From the NCBI RefSeq assembly GCF_029227855.1, contig NZ_CP074358.1: DNA of 64,000 bases; one strand, 5' to 3'. Positions 32,360 through 40,789 of this stretch are shown in pieces (the stretch's first letter is position 1; each line of letters opens with the position of its first letter). Position numbers and translations under genes: made by a program. This stretch comes from Escherichia coli (GTDB lineage: Bacteria > Pseudomonadota > Gammaproteobacteria > Enterobacterales > Enterobacteriaceae). The notes beneath the pieces are model-generated. The model searched no databases. It was not told the origin of the DNA and was given only the letters and a program-made list of their open reading frames with translations.

Positions 32360-32997
32360 TTATTATTAGCTATTAATCAGTTTTTTAGTTTTTGAAAATT
32401 GTGATGCTTCTAAAATTACTAAAATTGAGGATTTTAATGCTACAACAATGCCTGCCTCTTCTTATTTCTCCGGAGATCCGAAAACCCCAAGTTCAGGATC
32501 TTCCTCTCCCCCCACACAACGCCACCTCCTGTAAGCACAATATGTGGTGCCGGATTCAGCTACTGATGACACTATATGTTGTGTCATCTCCCTGACCTGT
32601 GATGCGTCGCGCAGGGGCGGAAAACAGCGATATGATGATTTCCTCAGCGTGGTACACTTCCGGAAACCCGTCAATAACAGAAAAATCGGATCTGCCTGAA
32701 ATGGGCATCCGGTAATTTAATGGCGTGGTTATATGCCTGCTTATTATCTGACAGGTGATGATTTATTTAGGGGAAAATAATTCATGCTGACAGAGTGTTG
32801 TGCTGCCATGCGTAATAACTCTGAGCGACTGTTGCTTCCGGTATCAGTTGAGTGAGGATTTTCAGACCACCACGTTTTACTGACCAGTAAAAATTTTTTT
32901 TGCCCGCAAGGCTGACAAGTGACTTCTTTTAGAATTTCGGCATCCACAACCAATGGCAGGAAGCCCGATGCAAAAATTTTTAAGGAGAGCTCTTTTA

Positions 32998-33237
32998 ATG
33001 AAAATTGCTCAGCAATTACTGGAAGCCGTTCTGCAATTTATGAATGCATCTGCAATGACTCAGGTGCTGACGTTGCTATTCCTGGCTCTGATAATACAGG
33101 TACTGAAAACATTAATTACGGCGTGGATAGTAAGAAAACCATCTTCAGGAGAGATGGTTTTAGACCGGAAACCTGACTCTGCCGGGCGTAAGGATCACTG
33201 CAGGCAGCTGTCTCAACAAAGGAAAAAACATGGCTGA
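32998..33237 (+). CDS. Small hydrophobic protein (about 79 aa)
   Basis: RBS AAGGAGAG then ATG 32998; hydrophobic stretch MTQVLTLLFLALIIQVL; stop overlaps the start of the next ORF (ATGGCTGA). Confidence 0.4.
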   Translation: MKIAQQLLEAVLQFMNASAMTQVLTLLFLALIIQVLKTLITAWIVRKPSSGEMVLDRKPDSAGRKDHCRQLSQQRKKHG

Positions 33238-33519
33238 CTGGTTTATTGCAACTGAAGGTGTGAAGGTGGTGAAAGATAGTGCCAGCCTGTGGCCGCAGAT
33301 CATCACGGCGGTTTTGTCTGCCGGTACTGCATTTGGTGGTGTGTGGTACGGGCAGTGGCGGATAACACAGCGAGAGGAGGAAGCTGCAACAGCGAAGCTG
33401 GTCAGCGAACGTCTCTTTATTGCCACGGAGCTGGTTTTTCTGCTGGAGAGGTTTGCGCAGCGTTGTGCTCCAGCAGCAACAGCAACTGTGGAGCACGATC
33501 AGGATGGCAGAGGAGAAGC
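33230..33519 (+). pseudogene. Hypothetical gene truncated at its 3' end by IS3 insertion
   Basis: ORF reads from 33230 straight into the IS3 terminal repeat at 33520; final residues of the track ORF are IS-encoded. Confidence 0.5.
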
Positions 33520-33584
33520 TGATCTTACCCAGCAATAGTGGACACGCGGCTAAGTGAGTAAACTCTCAGTCAGAGGTGACTCAC

Positions 33585-33884
33585 ATGACAAAAACAGTAT
33601 CAACCAGTAAAAAACCCCGTAAACAGCATTCGCCTGAATTTCGCAGTGAAGCCCTGAAGCTTGCTGAACGCATCGGTGTTACTGCCGCAGCCCGTGAACT
33701 CAGCCTGTATGAATCACAACTCTACAACTGGCGCAGTAAACAGCAAAATCAGCAGACGTCTTCTGAACGTGAACTGGAGATGTCTACCGAGATTGCACGT
33801 CTCAAACGCCAGCTGGCAGAACGGGATGAAGAGCTGGCTATCCTCCAAAAGGCCGCGACATACTTCGCGAAGCGCCTGAAATGA
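33585..33884 (+). CDS. insE: IS3 transposase OrfA (InsE)
   Basis: Same protein as copy 1. Confidence 0.9.
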
Positions 33885-34747
33885 AGTATGTCTTTATTGA
33901 AAAACATCAGGCTGAGTTCAGCATCAAAGCAATGTGCCGCGTGCTCCGGGTGGCCCGCAGCGGCTGGTATACGTGGTGTCAGCGGCGGACAAGGATAAGC
34001 ACGCGTCAGCAGTTCCGCCAACACTGCGACAGCGTTGTCCTCGCGGCTTTTACCCGGTCAAAACAGCGTTACGGTGCCCCACGCCTGACGGATGAACTGC
34101 GTGCTCAGGGTTACCCCTTTAACGTAAAAACCGTGGCGGCAAGCCTGCGCCGTCAGGGACTGAGGGCAAAGGCCTCCCGGAAGTTCAGCCCGGTCAGCTA
34201 CCGCGCACACGGCCTGCCTGTGTCAGAAAATCTGTTGGAGCAGGATTTTTACGCCAGTGGCCCGAACCAGAAGTGGGCAGGAGACATCACGTACTTACGT
34301 ACAGATGAAGGCTGGCTGTATCTGGCAGTGGTCATTGACCTGTGGTCACGTGCCGTTATTGGCTGGTCAATGTCGCCACGCATGACGGCGCAACTGGCCT
34401 GCGATGCCCTGCAGATGGCGCTGTGGCGGCGTAAGAGGCCCCGGAACGTTATCGTTCACACGGACCGTGGAGGCCAGTACTGTTCAGCAGATTATCAGGC
34501 GCAACTGAAGCGGCATAATCTGCGTGGAAGTATGAGCGCAAAAGGTTGCTGCTACGATAATGCCTGCGTGGAAAGCTTCTTTCATTCGCTGAAAGTGGAA
34601 TGTATCCATGGAGAACACTTTATCAGCCGGGAAATAATGCGGGCAACGGTGTTTAATTATATCGAATGTGATTACAATCGGTGGCGGCGGCACAGTTGGT
34701 GTGGCGGCCTCAGTCCGGAACAATTTGAAAACAAGAACCTCGCTTAG
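33881..34747 (+). CDS. insF: IS3 transposase OrfB (InsF)
   Basis: 288 aa; differs from copy 1 at two residues. Confidence 0.9.
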
Positions 34748-35000
34748 GCCTGTGTCCATATTACGTGGGTAGGATCAGTTTGCATAAAAACGCAGCTATG
34801 TTGGGAGTAAAAGCACTGCGGTTATCACGAGAACTGAGAATGTTATGTGGCCTCCCTCTGCACGGCCTTTCCGATACACTATCGCCAACGAGGTTGGTAT
34901 TGTTGAAAGCCAGAGGTAAAACACTCCAAAAGGAGTACGAAATGGTAAAGAAGTCTAAAAAGACCGAGCAAGAGATTGAGGATTTCATAAAGGGGACATC

Positions 35001-35792
35001 ATGAGTGGCCCACAATTGCTTTCCCTGCCTGGTTCTTTTTTAACGCCTCCGGCAACATTACCTGTTGCCATTGATTACCCGGCTGCGCTGGCACTACGTC
35101 AGATGGCACTTGTGCAGGGCGAATTACCAAAATATCTGTTGGCGCCGGAGATCAGCGCCCTGCTCCGCTATGTACCGGATCTGCACCGCAAAATGTTGCT
35201 GGCCACCCTGTGGAACACGGGCGCACGTATAAACGAAGCGCTGGCGCTGACGCGGGGAGATTTTTCACTGGCGCCGCCATATCCGTTCGTACAGCTGGCC
35301 ACGCTCAAACAACGGACTGAAAAAGCGACCAGAACGGCAGGCCGTGTCCCTGCTGGCAGTCAGGTGCATCGCCTGGTTCCCCTGTCCGATACACAATACG
35401 TCAGCCAACTGCAGATGATGGTGGCCACGCTGAAAATCCCACTGGAGCGCAGAAACAAACGAACCGGAAGAATGGAGAAGGCGCGCATCTGGGAAATCAC
35501 CGACCGCACAGTTCGCACCTGGCTGAATGAAGCTGTAGAGGCCGCTGCGGCCGACGGCGTGACGTTCTCTGTTCCGGTTACCCCACATACTTTCCGCCAT
35601 TCCTACGCGATGCATATGCTGTATGCTGGTATTCCGCTGAAGGTGCTGCAGAGCCTGATGGGGCACAAGTCGATTAGTTCGACAGATGTGTACACGAAGG
35701 TGTTTGCGCTGGATGTGGCTGCACGGCACCGGGTGCAGTTTTCGATGCCTGAGTCCGATGCTGTCACAATGCTGAAAAACAGACACGCATAA
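35001..35792 (+). CDS. resD: Plasmid multimer-resolution tyrosine recombinase ResD
   Basis: 263-aa ORF recognised as F-plasmid ResD-like; catalytic motifs HTFRHSYAMHML ... LMGH. Confidence 0.85.
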   Translation: MSGPQLLSLPGSFLTPPATLPVAIDYPAALALRQMALVQGELPKYLLAPEISALLRYVPDLHRKMLLATLWNTGARINEALALTRGDFSLAPPYPFVQLATLKQRTEKATRTAGRVPAGSQVHRLVPLSDTQYVSQLQMMVATLKIPLERRNKRTGRMEKARIWEITDRTVRTWLNEAVEAAAADGVTFSVPVTPHTFRHSYAMHMLYAGIPLKVLQSLMGHKSISSTDVYTKVFALDVAARHRVQFSMPESDAVTMLKNRHA

Positions 35793-35799
35793 GTCACAA

Positions 35800-35930
35800 A
35801 TCATAATTATGAATTGTGATTTATTCTATAAAAGAAGAGACCACTGCAATATGTGATCTCTTGTATGCAAGGGTGCTTAAACAGTGTGAATTCACAAGTG
35901 TGATTTCATAAGTAATAACTTCTTGATTAT
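35800..35930. repeat. Partition-site-like direct repeats (TGTGATTT motifs) downstream of the ParA-type operon
   Basis: Three TGTGATTT-containing repeats; GTGATTTCATA recurs at about 36981. Confidence 0.5.
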
Positions 35931-36205
35931 TACGTTAGTGTTTTTAAGTATTGCTCAAGGGCTACTCTGACGATGGCACTTACATTTTTTGGATCTTTAC
36001 CATTGCGTTTATTCCTCAATGCCAGATCTTCTATTGTGACAAGCATGCTTTCACCAAGAGAGATTGTCGTCCGACATTGTTTTTCTGGTTCGGGTTTTTC
36101 CGGCGCGCCGTATGGTTTATCCGCAAGGCGCTGAGCCAGAGCCTCTGCTTGTTCTACCGTAACTGCAGCTCTGTTTAATGCTTGCTGGCTGGGTTTCTTC
36201 ACCAT
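35930..36205 (-). CDS. Small centromere-binding partition protein (ParG-like)
   Basis: 91-aa ORF immediately downstream of and overlapping the ParA-type ATPase gene. Confidence 0.7.
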   Translation of the reverse strand: MVKKPSQQALNRAAVTVEQAEALAQRLADKPYGAPEKPEPEKQCRTTISLGESMLVTIEDLALRNKRNGKDPKNVSAIVRVALEQYLKTLT

Positions 36206-36843
36206 GGGCCAAATACCTCATTCATTAAATGTTCAATTTCTGCTCTGGCTGCTGTATTGTTCGTTTCTACTACACCGGTGCCGTTGCTCATGCAATCGCG
36301 ATAGACTTTTCTGAAACAAATAACTGAATCCAGGACTTGAATTGTTGGGAATTCTTCAAGATATTCAAGGAATTCTTTTCTCTCATTTCCCCTCAAAACC
36401 GGATTGGTTGTTGCCATACTTTGTAAACAATAAACCTTAAGTTCCGGGTTAAGGTTACGCATTGCGTCTATCTGTTGTTCTAGTTCTGTAAGAGTATCCA
36501 GATCTGGTTGAGAACACTGTAGTGGCGCAATTATTTGATGTGCGACAACTCCACTCGTTATGAATTCCTTTGAGTTTCTTCCTGCGACATCCACTATTAC
36601 ATCATCGAACTTTTCATTCAGAGCCTGTAGTGTTTGTGTCAGGTTATCAAATTTCTCAACAAGGGTTATTGCTGGTAACAGTCCTGCAGCTTCTCGTTCT
36701 GCATGATGTTTTGCGGCTGTTCGTTGTAGATCTCCGTTTAACAGGCAGACTTCCCTTCCTTTATTTGCGAGAGCAATAGCCAGGTTTGATGCAATGGTAG
36801 TTTTCCCTGAACCACCTTTGTTCCCACCAACTACAGTAATCAT
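36199..36843 (-). CDS. parA: Type Ib partition ATPase (small ParA/ParF-like)
   Basis: Start MITVVGGNKGGSGKTT (deviant Walker A) at 36841-36843; 214 aa. Confidence 0.85.
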   Translation of the reverse strand: MITVVGGNKGGSGKTTIASNLAIALANKGREVCLLNGDLQRTAAKHHAEREAAGLLPAITLVEKFDNLTQTLQALNEKFDDVIVDVAGRNSKEFITSGVVAHQIIAPLQCSQPDLDTLTELEQQIDAMRNLNPELKVYCLQSMATTNPVLRGNERKEFLEYLEEFPTIQVLDSVICFRKVYRDCMSNGTGVVETNNTAARAEIEHLMNEVFGPW

Positions 36844-36849
36844 TGCAAC

Positions 36850-37070
36850 CTCATAAATGTGATGTGTGAAGTATGATGATATTTTGACACGGTAACCTGA
36901 TGTGTCAATATGCATTCATATTTATGAAGTATGAAATATGAAGTGTGTCATATGATGTAATAAATATTACTTGTGTTTTGTGATTTCATAACTATGATAG
37001 TTCTCAAATTGAGTATTACCTTGCAACCAGAAACAGTTATTTACTCAGATTGAGTATTTAAGGGGCTATA
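36850..37070. repeat. Shared centromere/promoter region with iterated short repeats between divergent partition operons
   Basis: Repeated TGATGTG, ATGAAGT and ATTGAGTATT motifs between the ParA-type start and the ParM start. Confidence 0.6.
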
Positions 37071-37071
37071 G

Positions 37072-38043
37072 ATGAACGTATACTGCGATGATGGTTCAAC
37101 AACAATCAAGTTGGCATGGAATGACAATGGGAAAATCTGTAAGTCGTTGTCGCAAAACTCATTTCGTCATGGATGGAAGGTTGACGGGTTAGGGATTCGC
37201 CAGACATTTAACTATGAACTGGATGGTAAAAAATACACGTATGATGAAGTTAGCAACCAATCTATTCTTACGACTCATATTGAGTATCAATATACGGATG
37301 TTAACCTGTTAGCTGTGCATCACGCTTTACTGAATAGTGGATTAGCGCCTCAGCCTGTATCATTGACTGTGACTTTACCTATCAGTGAGTTCTACACGAA
37401 AGAGTGTCAAAAAAATGAACTCAACATTCAGCGTAAAATTGAGAATTTAATGAGGCCGATTCGTCTTAATAAAGGCGATGTTTTCACCATTGAACACGTT
37501 GATGTGATGCCTGAATCATTGCCAGCTGTGTTTTCTCGTCTGGTCATGGATAAAGTTGGTCAGTTCGAAAAATCGCTGGTAGTTGATATTGGCGGCACTA
37601 CGCTTGATGTTGGTGTTATCGTTGGTCAATTTGACTCTGTAAGTGCCATTCATGGTAATTCTGGCATTGGTGTGTCTTCAGTTACGAAAGCTGCAATGAG
37701 TGCATTGCGCATGGCATCCAGTGATACCAGTTTCCTCGTTGCAGATGAATTGATTAAACGTCGTAATGATCCGGATTTTGTTCGGCAGGTTATAAATGAC
37801 GAAACAAAAACTGATCTGGTCCTTAATACCATTGAGGGGGCTATTGCCAGTCTGGGGGAGCAAGTAGTCAATGAGCTCGGTGATTTTCATCATGTGAATC
37901 GTGTTTATGTTGTCGGTGGTGGGGCCCCGTTGATCTATGGTTCGATAAAAACGGCATGGCACCATCTTGGGCAAAAAGTAGTGATGATGGAGTCGCCACA
38001 GACAGCACTGGTTGAAGCTATCGCGGCTTTCAAAGAGGAGTAA
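37072..38043 (+). CDS. parM: Actin-like partition ATPase ParM/StbA
   Basis: 323-aa ORF similar to R100 StbA as recalled (DDGSTTIKLAW..., DIGGTTLDV, VVGGGA). Confidence 0.85.
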   Translation: MNVYCDDGSTTIKLAWNDNGKICKSLSQNSFRHGWKVDGLGIRQTFNYELDGKKYTYDEVSNQSILTTHIEYQYTDVNLLAVHHALLNSGLAPQPVSLTVTLPISEFYTKECQKNELNIQRKIENLMRPIRLNKGDVFTIEHVDVMPESLPAVFSRLVMDKVGQFEKSLVVDIGGTTLDVGVIVGQFDSVSAIHGNSGIGVSSVTKAAMSALRMASSDTSFLVADELIKRRNDPDFVRQVINDETKTDLVLNTIEGAIASLGEQVVNELGDFHHVNRVYVVGGGAPLIYGSIKTAWHHLGQKVVMMESPQTALVEAIAAFKEE

Positions 38044-38047
38044 TATT

Positions 38048-38440
38048 GTGGACGATGAACGGAAAAGGAAAAAATTCACACTTTATCTGCATCCGGAAAA
38101 AGCTGCAGACTTTCAAACTTTGGAAGCGATAGAGTCCGTTCCGCGTTCTGAGCGTGGTGAGCTGTTCCGGAATGCATTTATTTCTGGAATGGCGTTACAC
38201 CAACTTGATCCTCGCCTGCCTGTATTGCTGACTGCCATTTTGAGCGAGGAGTTTTCAGCAGATCAGGTTGTAACCTTACTCAGTCAGACGACTGGATGGA
38301 AGCCTTCTCAGGCCGATATCAGAGCTGTGTTGACTGAACTCGGTGCTTTGCAATCTGCTGAAAAAATGCCTCCTTCTGCTACTGATTCGGTGCAGGAGGC
38401 AATGAATGATGTGCGCCTTAAAATGCAAAAATTATTCTGA
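38048..38440 (+). CDS. parR: Partition adaptor ParR/StbB
   Basis: Probable GTG start at 38048; small protein immediately after parM with StbB-like N-terminus. Confidence 0.7.
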   Translation: MDDERKRKKFTLYLHPEKAADFQTLEAIESVPRSERGELFRNAFISGMALHQLDPRLPVLLTAILSEEFSADQVVTLLSQTTGWKPSQADIRAVLTELGALQSAEKMPPSATDSVQEAMNDVRLKMQKLF

Positions 38441-38444
38441 TATA

Positions 38445-39716
38445 TCAGAATGAAGCAATGGGGATCTCAGTCCATTGTGTTGTATACGAAGGCGAGAGCA
38501 TTTCCCGTTTCATTTGCCATTCAGGGGCGGTTCCTCGCCCCGCAAACCACACTTTCCCTTTTCCCGACTGGTTCAGTTCATCGAGTGTTTTCATTAACTT
38601 TTCACTGTTTTTACGGGGCTGGATTTCATCAAATAATCCCGGCTGCGCTATACCCGATGGTGTGAAATCAGCCAGCATGACTCCTGCCTTCATATAGCGG
38701 TACCCTTCACGCCAGACATGGTTTAAGGCTCTGCATGCGGCGGCAATAATGTCCCGGCTGTCCTGTGTGGGCAATGGAAGCTTTTCCACAGCGGCATTGC
38801 TGTAACAGGGTTCTTTTACTGCAAAGGGGGATGTCCGTACAAATGTCGTCACCTGCCGGCAATACTGACGCTCCCCACGTAGTTTCTCTGCGGCCCGCTC
38901 TGCATACTGAACAACAGCCTGGTGCATGGCATCTTTGTCTGTGATTCGTTCACCAAAACTGCGACTACAGACAATCTGCTGTTTTGCCGGTGGTGCTTCT
39001 TCCAGGGATATGCAGGACTCGCCGTTGAGTTCGCGTACCGTACGCTCAAGAATGACGCTGAAGTTTTTCCGGATGAATGCCGTGTTAGCCTGCGCCAGCT
39101 GCAGTGCTGTGTTAATACCCAGCGCATTCAGCTTTTCCGTCAGTCTGCGTCCTACTCCCCAGACCTCACCAACTGGCTGCAGCCCCAGTAGCTTCAAGGT
39201 CCGATTACGGTTTTCTGCCGTCAGCGCGACCACTCCGGAAAACTGTGGCCATTGCTTTGTTGCCCACTGTGCACTTTTAGCCAGCGTTTTTGTAGGCGCA
39301 ATGCCCACCCCCATGGTGAGTCCTGTCCAGCTCTTTACCTGTTCCCTGAGCTGATGACCAAAAAACTCCGGAGAGATGCAATGATTTATCCCCCGCAAAT
39401 CAATAAACATTTCATCAATTGAGTAGGGCTCAACTGCGGGAGAAAGCGACTCCAGAACAGCCATGACCCGTTGGCTCATGCTGTGGTACAGCGCATAATT
39501 GCTGGAAAATACATGTATTTTCTTCTCCAGGCGCATCTGTCTCACCTGAAACCAGGGCTGCCCCATTCTGATGCCAAGGGCTTTTGCCTCCGGGCTGCGC
39601 GCGATCACACAGCCATCGTTATTGCTGAGTACGATGACCGGTTCGTTGCGAAGGTCCGGGCGGAAAACTTTTTCACATGAGGCGTAGAAACTGTTGATAT
39701 CAGCCAGTGCAAACAT
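38445..39716 (-). CDS. impB: Error-prone translesion DNA polymerase subunit (UmuC/MucB/ImpB family)
   Basis: 423-aa ORF starting MFALADINSFYASCE, Y-family polymerase. Confidence 0.9.
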   Translation of the reverse strand: MFALADINSFYASCEKVFRPDLRNEPVIVLSNNDGCVIARSPEAKALGIRMGQPWFQVRQMRLEKKIHVFSSNYALYHSMSQRVMAVLESLSPAVEPYSIDEMFIDLRGINHCISPEFFGHQLREQVKSWTGLTMGVGIAPTKTLAKSAQWATKQWPQFSGVVALTAENRNRTLKLLGLQPVGEVWGVGRRLTEKLNALGINTALQLAQANTAFIRKNFSVILERTVRELNGESCISLEEAPPAKQQIVCSRSFGERITDKDAMHQAVVQYAERAAEKLRGERQYCRQVTTFVRTSPFAVKEPCYSNAAVEKLPLPTQDSRDIIAAACRALNHVWREGYRYMKAGVMLADFTPSGIAQPGLFDEIQPRKNSEKLMKTLDELNQSGKGKVWFAGRGTAPEWQMKREMLSPSYTTQWTEIPIASF

Positions 39717-40153
39717 CAGCGTAACTCCCGCGTCCTGTGTATCACGTGAGTGACAACACCAAAAATACAGATGTTTTCCGGATACAGTGTGCGGAATTCC
39801 GGGCTGTCTGAAACCGGCTCCAGTGCCGGGCGTGGGCGCAACAGCAGTCGTTTGACGGTGAACTCACCGTCGATCTCAGCGATAACGATGTCCCCGTGTT
39901 GTGGTTTTTCGGCCCTGTCCACTACCAGCAGATCACCATTCTGCACGCCAGCCTGGTTCATCGATTCACCGCTGGCGCGCAGAAAGAAGGTGGCTGCAGG
40001 TCTGCTGATGCAATAGCTGTTCAGATCCAGTTCCTGCTCAGCATAATCAGTGGCAGGCGAAGGAAAACCGGCCTGGCAACGATCGGCAAACAACGGTCGC
40101 ACGTAACTGTCATCGCCTGAAGGGTCAGCCGGACGGTGATAAACGGTACTCAT
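39716..40153 (-). CDS. impA: UmuD/MucA/ImpA-like self-cleaving accessory protein
   Basis: 145-aa ORF with LexA-like peptidase domain, overlapping impB start. Confidence 0.85.
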   Translation of the reverse strand: MSTVYHRPADPSGDDSYVRPLFADRCQAGFPSPATDYAEQELDLNSYCISRPAATFFLRASGESMNQAGVQNGDLLVVDRAEKPQHGDIVIAEIDGEFTVKRLLLRPRPALEPVSDSPEFRTLYPENICIFGVVTHVIHRTRELR

Positions 40154-40398
40154 GCTGCAGGCAGCCAGCTGTCGTCCTGCCAGATTTCTTCCAGCAGAGA
40201 CAGGATACGTTCTTTATCCTTGTCGTTGCGGGCTCCTGTGACAGATACAGACGGGGCGCTGCCCTGGTCAATACGCAGCCAGATTTCCGGGTAGTGTGGT
40301 TTCAGACGTTGTTCGATTTCATTCTGTAGCGCCTGAAGTGTGCCTGATTTGAGGTTTTTTGTGCTCTGGCGGTCGAAAAGAATTTCAATGCGGATCAT
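40150..40398 (-). CDS. impC: ImpC
   Basis: 82-aa product MIRIEILFDRQSTKNLKSG... from ATG at 40396-40398, first gene of the three-gene imp operon. Confidence 0.75.
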   Translation of the reverse strand: MIRIEILFDRQSTKNLKSGTLQALQNEIEQRLKPHYPEIWLRIDQGSAPSVSVTGARNDKDKERILSLLEEIWQDDSWLPAA

Positions 40399-40789
40399 GT
40401 TCTCATCTCCCTTTTCTTTTGCTGTATGTATATACAGTATTCTAATAACTGAATTCACACAGTCAAATGTCCTTATTGTGACTAAAAAACGCTCAGCTCT
40501 CTGAGTGTGTGCCTGTATGCCTGCTGTGGACTGCTGTGTCCAGCTTATCCACAGCATTATGCGCACGGTTCTGTGGACAAAATACCTGGTTACCCAGGCC
40601 GTGCCGGCACGTTAACCGGGCTGCATCCGATGCAAGTGTGTCGCTGTTGCCGGCCTCCTCACCCGGTCACGTTTCGTCGTTCCTCCTCCACGCGCTGCGG
40701 CTTCGGGGCCGCACCTGCATTCGTATGCGGTCGCCCGGTTACAGGTGCGGCACGGCCTGATGGAGGCCGCATGTAAGAGGAGAATTCCC

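Follow-up and report, generated by a model that had tools for sequence, protein, structure and literature searches.

A pB171-type double partition cassette and its heptad repeat arrays in a 64-kb stretch of Escherichia coli DNA

For the double par locus of pB171, an EPEC virulence plasmid of E. coli (Ebersbach & Gerdes 2001; Ringgaard et al. 2007), published work has established partition activity, ParA oscillation, the binding of ParB and ParR to parC, centromere pairing and cross-talk. Work attributed to Ringgaard et al. (2007) reportedly found repression of par1, the non-cognate operon, by ParB in pB171 and an involvement of IHF in par2. The adjacent type I and type II par loci have a single common regulatory region (PMC6519299). 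[quoted passage not shown] The ParB protein is of the ribbon-helix-helix (RHH) type and there are two parC sites (PMC2441792); arrays of repeats to which ParB binds lie on either side of parAB (PMC7602700). For ParR, the structure of which is PDB 2JD3 (PMC3074162), two 10-bp direct repeats are located upstream of parM (PMC9426499).

The DNA analyzed here (the window) is a stretch of 64,000 nucleotides from Escherichia coli. Its positions 35793-38440 very probably hold an intact double partition cassette of the pB171 type, in which two divergent operons, parA and parB on the minus strand and parM and parR on the plus strand, are arranged around a shared control region (Table 1). The initial annotation had described a ParA-type gene with a small partner on the minus strand, a ParM/ParR pair on the plus strand and associated repeats, and had placed all of them correctly to within a few bases. 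It had also put about 230 bp of repeats between the operons and more repeats downstream of the ParA-type operon. The parMR and parAB operons diverge from a shared central cis region: parA starts at 36843 and parM at 37072, which gives a spacer of 228 bp, against the roughly 200 bp expected of such a locus. The downstream region, parC2, is 137 bp long, contains nine in-phase TRTGA cores and occupies the entire gap between the stop codon of a resD-like recombinase gene and the stop codon of parB.

Table 1. Genes, repeat regions and predicted signals of the double partition cassette, in window coordinates
Feature	Position	Strand	Description
parC2	35793-35929		137-bp cis-acting repeat region downstream of parB
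parC2 heptad cluster a	35794-35821		TCACAAA TCATAAT TATGAAT TGTGATT; first pair reverse, second pair forward
Terminator-like hairpin and T-run	35835-35862	-	mid-parC2; 10-bp stem with 4 GC pairs, then CTTTTATAGA
parC2 heptad cluster b	35885-35912		TGTGAAT TCACAAG TGTGATT TCATAAG; orientation alternates
IHF-consensus exact match	35916-35928	-	AATCAAGAAGTTA = WATCAANNNNTTR; adjoins parB stop codon
parB	35930-36205	-	91 aa; type Ib centromere-binding protein, N-terminal tail followed by RHH domain
parA	36199-36843	-	214 aa; type Ib Walker-type (MinD-like) partition ATPase without N-terminal HTH domain
parC1	36844-37071		228-bp cis-acting/regulatory region common to both divergent operons
parC1 heptad cluster a	36851-36878		TCATAAA TGTGATG TGTGAAG TATGATG
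Candidate P2 (parAB promoter)	36881-36908	-	TTGACA, 16 nt, TG-CAAAAT; 10/12 consensus, extended -10 TG
parC1 heptad cluster c	36916-36999		12 contiguous heptads in a single register
Candidate P1 (parMR promoter)	36971-36998	+	TTGTGT, 16 nt, TATGAT; 8/12 consensus
ParR site R1	37003-37017	+	CTCAAATTGAGTATT; includes 10-bp ATTGAGTATT and perfect 5-1-5 palindrome CTCAA-A-TTGAG
ParR site R2	37044-37058	+	CTCAGATTGAGTATT; spaced 41 bp, or about four helical turns, from R1
parM	37072-38043	+	323 aa; actin-like partition ATPase
parR	38048-38440	+	130 aa, GTG start; adaptor and centromere-binding protein

Collinearity with pB171 was judged against eight contigs that encode the exact 2JD3 ParR and stood in for the pB171 record (AB024946 / NC_002142). 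All eight have the same four genes, of the same lengths and with the same 228-bp spacer, and align to the window without gaps. Mismatches amounted to 0-5% per segment: none in the 276 bp of parB, 3-4 of 645 in parA, 10-13 of 972 in parM, 6 of 393 in parR, 6-12 of 228 in parC1 and 6-7 of 137 in parC2. All four open reading frames of the window are intact, with 97-100% identity to the pB171 type. The likeness to pB171 par1/par2 proposed at the outset was borne out by ParR, which is identical to 2JD3 (named there 'StbB') at 126 of 130 residues, and by the gene order, orientation and lengths, the spacer, the ParR repeats and the two-sided ParB arrays, all of which agree. The window copy is an allelic variant of the pB171 type, with four amino-acid changes in ParR and 3-5% divergence in parC1 and parC2. 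It lies in another, mosaic backbone, with a different resD allele, an IS replacing ccdAB and an F-like pif/RepFIB region upstream; relative to the pB171-type contigs the resD allele is far more diverged than the par genes, and an alignment of resD plus parC2 is 82.9% identical. The F sopABC genes, as a third partition system, are absent from the window. The same four-gene synteny was found in a 74%-identical locus of Enterobacter cloacae (L011), which keeps the heptad arrays, the ParR sites and both promoter candidates and in which parC1 is conserved in blocks. Another locus (L012) has par2 without par1, with an IS in the place of par1.

PLSDB records containing at least 80% of the element in question numbered 975 for par1, 1035 for par2 with parC1 and 981 for the whole cassette. 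The initial annotation was right to call the locus not novel: the double par cassette is already known and is common on enterobacterial plasmids. Its suggestion that the locus would point to the relatives of the backbone held only weakly. The approximately 980 carriers vary in Inc type, size and genus, so the cassette carries little information on backbone ancestry, and the adjacent resD allele differs. Plasmids of about 300-320 kb from Salmonella are among the carriers.

The plus-strand genes form a type II ParMRC system, with parR directly downstream of parM and repeats upstream of parM. ParM is an actin-fold ATPase, matching Pfam StbA_N (PF06406, 217 bits) and the ParM C-terminal domain (PF21523, 150 bits), and its residues 2-295 match structures of R1 ParM (E 2.3e-75). 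ParR matches Pfam Plasmid_stab_B (PF10784, 102 bits). Shine-Dalgarno sequences AAGGGG and GAGGAG precede the parM ATG and the parR GTG, respectively. Two palindromic sites of the form CTCAA-N-TTGAG lie just upstream of parM, and the 10-bp direct repeat ATTGAGTATT is found at 37008-37017 and 37049-37058. Both copies are invariant in the relatives; site R1 is invariant across the eight pB171-type contigs and its core is kept in L011. The ParMRC system of plasmid R1 (the parA locus) likewise consists of an actin-like ParM, an RHH ParR and a promoter-containing parC upstream of parM. However, parC of R1 has ten 11-bp iterons whereas the window has two ParR sites, and R1, unlike the window, has neither a linked type I system nor a shared regulatory region.

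With both strands counted there are 22 TRTGA cores (best form TGTGATTT), which lie in either orientation; 13 belong to parC1 and nine to parC2. Composition-preserving shuffles yielded about 0.4-1.0 cores per strand (about 0.4-0.5 for parC2), and none of 5000 reached the plus-strand counts. The cores keep to a 7-bp register: neighbors exactly 7 bp apart occur eight times in parC1 and six times in parC2, which was matched by 0 of 20000 random placements. Runs of at least three in-phase cores were found only in parC1 and parC2 within the 64-kb window. Cluster a of parC1 is positioned between the -10 hexamer of the predicted parA promoter and the parA Shine-Dalgarno sequence and is nearly invariant in L011. 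The long cluster c reads TCATATT TATGAAG TATGAAA TATGAAG TGTGTCA TATGATG TAATAAA TATTACT TGTGTTT TGTGATT TCATAAC TATGATA, and its variation among relatives is mainly at core position 2, from R to R. Substitutions in cluster a of parC2 (35797 C>T and 35816 G>A) are also at this degenerate position, as are seven of the nine in-core substitutions. The invariant-core bases, which make up 88 of the 365 positions of the repeat regions, take 2 of the 33 substitutions (binomial P = 0.007). This pattern points to selection on the repeats.

The extent of parC2 could be drawn differently. Positions 35793-35866 might represent the 3′ flank of the recombinase gene with its terminator and lie outside the centromere, which would leave parC2 as 35885-35929 only. 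An estimated 500-600 PLSDB plasmids (14 in a sample of 40 rows, taken at even intervals from 1697 records) match query positions 1-74 and none of the remaining par2/parC1 query. In p.CT30-P2 the 74-bp stretch lies between the recombinase gene and the genes for colicins M and B that come after it, in a neighborhood that lacks par genes. Since the resD-proximal 74 bp occur in plasmids without par genes, we infer their membership in the centromere from the heptads. Against the narrower delimitation, the TRTGA core of parC1 recurs in this part in four perfect heptads, all in phase, and the substitutions of this part obey the R/Y degeneracy of the core. It is also present beside the resD allele of the window as well as beside the different one of the pB171 type, and thus travels with par and not with one resD allele. 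The orphan copies are equally well explained as truncated remnants of parC2. We therefore regard the shorter parC2 as unlikely and take the whole 137 bp as the repeat region.

A stock promoter scan gave the parA candidate alone, and a relaxed scan gave two candidates for parM. In L011 the parA candidate, P2, retains a TTGACT -35 and a CAAAAT -10 (read by eye); in the window its -35 hexamer doubles as the heptad TGTCAAT of parC1 cluster b. Candidate P1 lies within the four final ParB heptads of cluster c, and L011 conserves both of its hexamers and the 16-nt spacing, with a changed spacer sequence. TTGACA-16-CAATAT (36884-36911, 9/12) was set aside as the main P1 candidate since its -10 is not conserved in L011, but it may still be the parM promoter. 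The exact promoter functions of P1 and P2 are predictions from these matches, and the hairpin in the middle of parC2 is a candidate terminator of the parAB operon. Matches to the IHF consensus number four in 64 kb. The one beside parB is the sole place in parC1 or parC2 that matches with at most one mismatch, and the 35922 C>A substitution of the relatives leaves its agreement with the consensus intact. In parC1 no IHF consensus was found even when one mismatch was allowed. IHF would presumably bind at the site beside parB.

The par2 operon is a type Ib ParABS system, and in the proposed mechanism ParB dimers would bind the 7-bp TRTGA arrays of parC1 and parC2 cooperatively and in either orientation. 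The ParB-DNA complexes would stimulate ATP hydrolysis by nucleoid-bound ParA-ATP dimers, and ParA gradients or oscillation would then space plasmid copies evenly on the nucleoid. In par1, a type II ParMRC system, ParR would bind the two sites just upstream of parM, and the ParR complex would capture the growing ends of actin-like ParM filaments so that sister plasmids are pushed apart. Both ParB and ParR would double as repressors. ParB heptads flanking and overlapping the predicted parA promoter suggest autoregulation of parA, those over the predicted parM promoter would yield the published cross-repression of par1 by ParB, and ParR site R1 is located at the predicted parM transcription start. 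The window copy is probably functional, judging from its sequence.

The same features could be explained if one system alone mattered and the other was redundant, silenced (for example, par1 switched off through ParB cross-repression) or decaying. Repression of par1 by ParB has been reported in pB171 work cited in PMC11950199, the best candidate for a parM promoter in the window is covered by ParB heptads, and L012 has par2 only, with an IS where par1 is expected. In Shigella pINV the contributions of two partition systems are conditional and partly masking (PMC6519299). However, none of the four open reading frames of the window is disrupted, and about 975-1035 plasmids carry par1 and par2 of this allele together, either one being hardly ever found alone. 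The pairing is also kept in L011 at 74% identity, and its persistence across such divergence argues for selection on both systems. A single effective system is accordingly an unlikely reading, and we favor two maintained systems.

ParA has the deviant Walker A motif KGGSGKT within GGNKGGSGKTT and reads MITVVGGNKGGSGKTT from residue 1. Its 214 residues (about 200-230 expected), the KGGxxGK[ST] signature and the lack of an N-terminal HTH domain identify it as a type Ib ParA. The match to NCBIfam ParA_partition runs end to end (profile positions 6-203 of 203) with 116 bits, yet under the equivalog cutoff of 180; the Pfam matches are MipZ, AAA_31 and CbiA. A GAGGT Shine-Dalgarno sequence lies 5 nt upstream of the ATG, and this start was preferred because of it and because it agrees with the gene calls on all related contigs. 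A mechanical reading frame of 238 aa reaching 36915 was rejected, as it starts inside parC1, upstream of the predicted parA promoter.

The initial annotation made its reading depend on the 91-aa product being a DNA-binding protein, and ParB is indeed an RHH centromere-binding protein. Its description as ParG-like is appropriate for fold and architecture but not for sequence, in which no similarity to ParG is detectable. A single-sequence search of PDB with ParB returned nothing meaningful, and a profile search of PDB returned RHH matches below threshold only. The N-terminus, MVKKPSQQA...EQAEALAQRLADKPYG, is strongly conserved within the family and has low to moderate pLDDT; these features are suggestive of a tail that may stimulate the ParA ATPase. 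Similarities to TP228 are evident in both proteins. ParF and the window ParA are small Walker ATPases of about 206-214 aa that match over their full length (4DZZ, E 3e-7), and ParG and ParB are both RHH proteins with a flexible N-terminal tail. In both systems the upstream centromere is made of short degenerate repeats and also serves as the operator (PMC3130281). The parH centromere of TP228 differs in that it consists of tetramer boxes and AT-rich spacers at one upstream site, whereas the window has 7-bp heptads at two sites.

RefSeq/PGAP labels ParA as 'division plane positioning ATPase MipZ' and ParB as 'hypothetical protein / CopG family transcriptional regulator', and such names stand on hundreds of plasmids. 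That the minus-strand pair is no partition system but a positioning ATPase like MipZ or MinD together with a transcriptional repressor of the CopG type, in agreement with these names and with MipZ as the top Pfam match of ParA (50.5 bits), is extremely improbable: of the 262 positions of the MipZ profile only 2-147 are matched, in contrast to the end-to-end ParA_partition and ParF matches, the pair is plasmid-borne with repeat arrays on both flanks, and its genes are those of pB171 par2, for which partition function is experimentally established (PMC4270457, PMC2441792).

The delta/omega-parS system of pSM19035 (Streptococcus pyogenes) resembles this partition pair in combining a type Ib ParA with a small RHH ParB. 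In both cases contiguous 7-bp units, direct and inverted, overlap promoters, which implies that the centromere-binding protein is also a repressor. The omega heptad is WATCACW, and at least four contiguous heptads are needed for full ParA activation in pSM19035 (PMC9499535). On the other strand WATCACW reads WGTGATW, and TGTGATT is present three times in the window (35815, 35899 and 36979). Every window cluster has at least four contiguous good heptads, that is, the pSM19035 minimum. On the other hand, the proteins have no detectable sequence similarity, the window consensus (TRTGAW) is looser and the host phylum differs; pSM19035 is also unlike the window in its six parS sites and in lacking a linked ParMRC system. 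The likeness of the heptad sequences may be coincidental. As a tentative and rather doubtful proposal, the ParB centromere of the pB171 family could follow an omega-like heptad code, and the orphan half-parC2 may still bind ParB. Such a code may consist of contiguous TRTGAW units in either orientation, at least four per functional cluster, with the omega TGTGATT included. If true, it would indicate a shared or convergent grammar of RHH centromeres in proteobacterial and firmicute type Ib systems.

Overall, the cassette adds no new biology to the pB171 system, which has served for two decades as a model of ParA-driven equipositioning. It pinpoints the plasmid segregation machinery and its centromeres and is useful for annotation. 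The parC sites are likely determinants of partition incompatibility among the plasmids that share the cassette, which include virulence and resistance plasmids of the IncF group as well as others. If ParB binds half-parC2, plasmids of the ColBM/ColV type and others could hitch-hike on co-resident double-par plasmids; alternatively, the carriers of half-parC2 could be incompatible with such co-residents.

The analysis of the ORF list and the sequence revealed two minus-strand and two plus-strand ORFs diverging from a 228-bp spacer, in agreement with the layout and the spacing of about 230 bp proposed in the initial annotation. The start of parA was placed at the ATG at 36843, because it is preceded by GAGGT, gives the N-terminus MITVVGGNKGGSGKTT and yields the 214-aa protein called on every related contig; a mechanical 238-aa ORF extending to 36915 was rejected. 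The GTG at 38048 was taken as the parR start from the alignment to PDB 2JD3. These two starts set the limits of the spacer at 36844-37071 (parC1). A second region of 137 bp separates the recombinase and parB stop codons (35793-35929, parC2).

Features of the double par locus and its flanks
Feature	Position	Strand	Details
resD-like tyrosine recombinase	35001-35792		one flank of the cassette
parC2a heptads	from 35794		TCACAAA TCATAAT TATGAAT TGTGATT
terminator-like hairpin	35862 to 35835	minus	between parC2a and parC2b
parC2b heptads	from 35885		TGTGAAT TCACAAG TGTGATT TCATAAG
IHF consensus	35916-35928		exact match, one of four in the window
parB	35930-36205	minus	91-aa ORF
parA	36199-36843	minus	214 aa, Walker-type ATPase
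parC1a heptads	from 36851		TCATAAA TGTGATG TGTGAAG TATGATG
candidate parA promoter	36908-36903, 36886-36881	minus	TTGACA, 16 nt, TG-CAAAAT; consensus scan
parC1b heptads	from 36896		two heptads
parC1c heptads	36916-36999		twelve, contiguous
candidate parM promoter	36971-36998		TTGTGT-16-TATGAT, 8/12; best conserved candidate
predicted ParR sites R1, R2	37003-37017, 37044-37058		CTCA(A/G)ATTGAGTATT, two copies 41 bp apart, downstream of the heptads
parM	37072-38043	plus	323-aa ORF
parR	38048-38440	plus	130 aa, GTG start
impCAB/umuDC-like operon	38445 to about 40400		other flank of the cassette

The plus-strand pair was readily assigned by Pfam: ParM matches StbA_N (217 bits) and the ParM C-terminal domain (150 bits), and ParR matches Plasmid_stab_B (102 bits). 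R1 ParM structures align with the window ParM (E 2.3e-75). Pfam matches of ParA are MipZ, AAA_31 and CbiA; the window ParA aligns over its full length to TP228 ParF (4DZZ, E 3e-7).

Crystal structure 2JD3 is that of pB171 ParR (PMC3074162), and the comparison with pB171 was therefore made through this sequence and through contigs encoding exactly that ParR. The window ParR is identical to 2JD3 at 126 of 130 positions. All eight retrieved loci with the exact 2JD3 ParR have the same four genes (91, 214, 323 and 130 aa) and the same 228-bp spacer, and all eight align to the window without gaps, with mismatches of 0/276 in parB, 3-4/645 in parA, 10-13/972 in parM, 6/393 in parR, 6-12/228 in parC1 and 6-7/137 in parC2. 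This demonstrated that the window holds the pB171 double par locus in a closely related allelic form, as the likeness to par1/par2 had suggested; it is thus an already known and extensively characterised system. Across these loci the centromere regions diverge by 3-5% and the genes by 0-1.5%, parB being nucleotide-identical throughout; many changes in the centromere regions swap A and G at position 2 of the heptad core, which is degenerate.

As a possible point against the double locus, the initial annotation had named the case that the 91-aa ORF is not a DNA-binding protein. The Pfam match of ParB to the ribbon-helix-helix (RHH) family RHH_1 is barely over the gathering score (21.7 bits). In an alignment of 28 ParB homologues from Enterobacterales and Aeromonas, the strand R-T-T-I-S-L is invariant, and the two helices after it are conserved, as is the N-terminal tail. 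When a profile of this alignment was compared with PDB, the RHH proteins EndoAI and CopG came out on top, aligned on the strand and helices, at a non-significant E of 0.1-0.3. In the AlphaFold model (mean pLDDT 74.8), an extended segment precedes two helices, 52-68 and 75-90, that are predicted with confidence. The RHH_1 match, family profile and model argue with moderate support against a protein that does not bind DNA. That ParB is an RHH protein is moderately well supported and agrees with the recognition of parC by pB171 ParB via an RHH motif (PMC2441792).

De novo k-mer counting identified TGTGA and TATGA as standing out. On both strands together there are 13 TRTGA cores in parC1 and nine in parC2; shuffled sequence contains about 0.4-1.0 per strand, and the plus-strand counts were reached in none of 5000 shuffles. 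Adjacent cores are exactly 7 bp apart in eight cases in parC1 and six in parC2, which was matched by 0 of 20000 random placements. No in-phase runs of at least three cores were found elsewhere in the 64-kb window. The repeats described between the operons and downstream of the ParA-type operon are therefore real and consist of phased TRTGA cores. Of the nine core substitutions seen in the eight close relatives, seven are R-to-R (or Y-to-Y) at core position 2, and only 2 of the 33 distinct substitutions hit the invariant-core bases (88/365; binomial P = 0.007). Such a pattern marks a binding motif under constraint.

Both predicted ParR sites are invariant in the eight relatives, and each includes the 10-bp direct repeat that PMC9426499 gives for ParR of pB171. 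Each is a 5-1-5 palindrome, CTCAA-N-TTGAG, a form that fits a symmetric RHH dimer.

The consensus scan gave a single strong minus-strand promoter, with heptad cluster a on one side and clusters b-c on the other; its -35 hexamer forms part of cluster b. Sequence read by eye indicates that this predicted parA promoter is kept in the diverged locus of Enterobacter cloacae plasmid OW849308.1 (2982-5500; 74% nucleotide identity), found by a distant search. In the same locus both hexamers and the spacing of the parM candidate are preserved, and the spacer sequence is changed. Both assignments are predictions and not mapped starts. The last four ParB heptads cover the parM candidate, which is directed onto R1. 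This arrangement would explain autoregulation by ParR, with the promoter firing onto R1, as well as the repression that ParB is reported to exert on par1, with heptads lying over the promoter. Ringgaard et al. are said to have described that repression in 2007. By transfer from the studied pB171 system, nucleoid-bound ParA-ATP of par2 would be stimulated by ParB-parC complexes, and ParR bound to its sites in par1 would link plasmids to ParM filaments so that the copies are pushed apart. This coupling and pushing are outlined in the introduction of PMC4270457, the ParR helical scaffold is described in PMC5016525, and a passage of PMC11950199 cites Ringgaard et al. 2007 for the par1/par2 interplay.

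The E. cloacae locus has the synteny of the window (recombinase, parB, parA, spacer, parM, parR, impB), in-phase TRTGA heptads in the spacer and downstream region, and two CTCAA-N-(T/C)TGAG sites. Identity in ParR is 58%, and the N-terminal strand KKFT(L/V)YLHP is conserved. Enterobacter ludwigii plasmid NZ_OX147890.1 (2989-3920) carries parAB only, with heptad arrays on both sides and ISEc36 at the expected position of par1. The two form a diverged lineage of 71-74% nucleotide identity.

In its architecture, par2 works like other type Ib systems whose centromere-binding proteins are of the RHH type, and its centromere grammar comes closest to that of omega/parS of pSM19035. There, contiguous 7-bp heptads WATCACW, direct or inverted, overlap promoters, and full ParA activation requires at least four contiguous heptads (PMC9499535); in the window no cluster has fewer than four good heptads. 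TGTGATT, present at 35815, 35899 and 36979, is the exact reverse complement of the omega consensus heptad AATCACA, which could be coincidence or a common RHH recognition preference. Sequence and profile searches detected no similarity between the window proteins and the omega system, so that the likeness is one of working and not of membership.

The whole cassette is at least 80% covered in 981 PLSDB records, par2 with parC1 in 1035 and par1 in 975, indicating that par1 and par2 of this allele are almost never separated. Escherichia and Salmonella are the main hosts (plasmids of about 300-320 kb among them), with Klebsiella and Shigella also represented. The parR end (38440) and that of the convergent minus-strand Y-family polymerase gene (impB/umuC-like, 38445-39716) are separated by a 4-bp gap, leaving no room for separate terminators.

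Collinearity with the leading region of IncF plasmid pS65EC spans window 34777-57351 and extends as far as traM. The slot that separates resD from the leading region holds repE (RepFIA) and sopABC in F (NC_002483.1, 3674-8567); in the window it is filled by the double par locus and impCAB (35793-40500), and sopAB is absent from the window. Across resD and parC2 the window is 82.9% identical to pB171-type contigs, versus 97-100% in the neighbouring par genes. This places a recombination boundary close to the stop codon of resD or to the beginning of parC2 and makes the cassette a mobile module in mosaic backbones; the suggestion that the locus points to the backbone's relatives accordingly holds only weakly. 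Homology to the F pif region stops at 32717 and that to pS65EC starts at 34777. The ccdA-ccdB genes, which precede resD on F and pB171-type contigs, are absent from the window, their place (32718-34776) being taken by an IS3-family element (transposase ORF 33881-34747). In pS65EC the same neighbourhood has IS26, which suggests a hot spot for insertions at this junction.

In roughly 500-600 PLSDB plasmids the match is confined to the first 74 bp past the resD-like stop codon (35793-35866), which comprise parC2 heptad cluster a and the hairpin (4001-4074 in NZ_CP032080.1). In ColBM/IncFIB plasmid p.CT30-P2 the colicin M and B genes directly follow this stub, without par genes nearby. The stub looks like half a centromere that was orphaned when the par cassette was replaced.

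In RefSeq/PGAP, ParA goes under the name 'division plane positioning ATPase MipZ'; ParB is entered as 'hypothetical protein' or 'CopG family transcriptional regulator'. ParA matches NCBIfam ParA_partition end to end at 116 bits, under the equivalog cutoff of 180, which probably explains its naming. The pB171-type par2, a model system, is under-described in public annotation.
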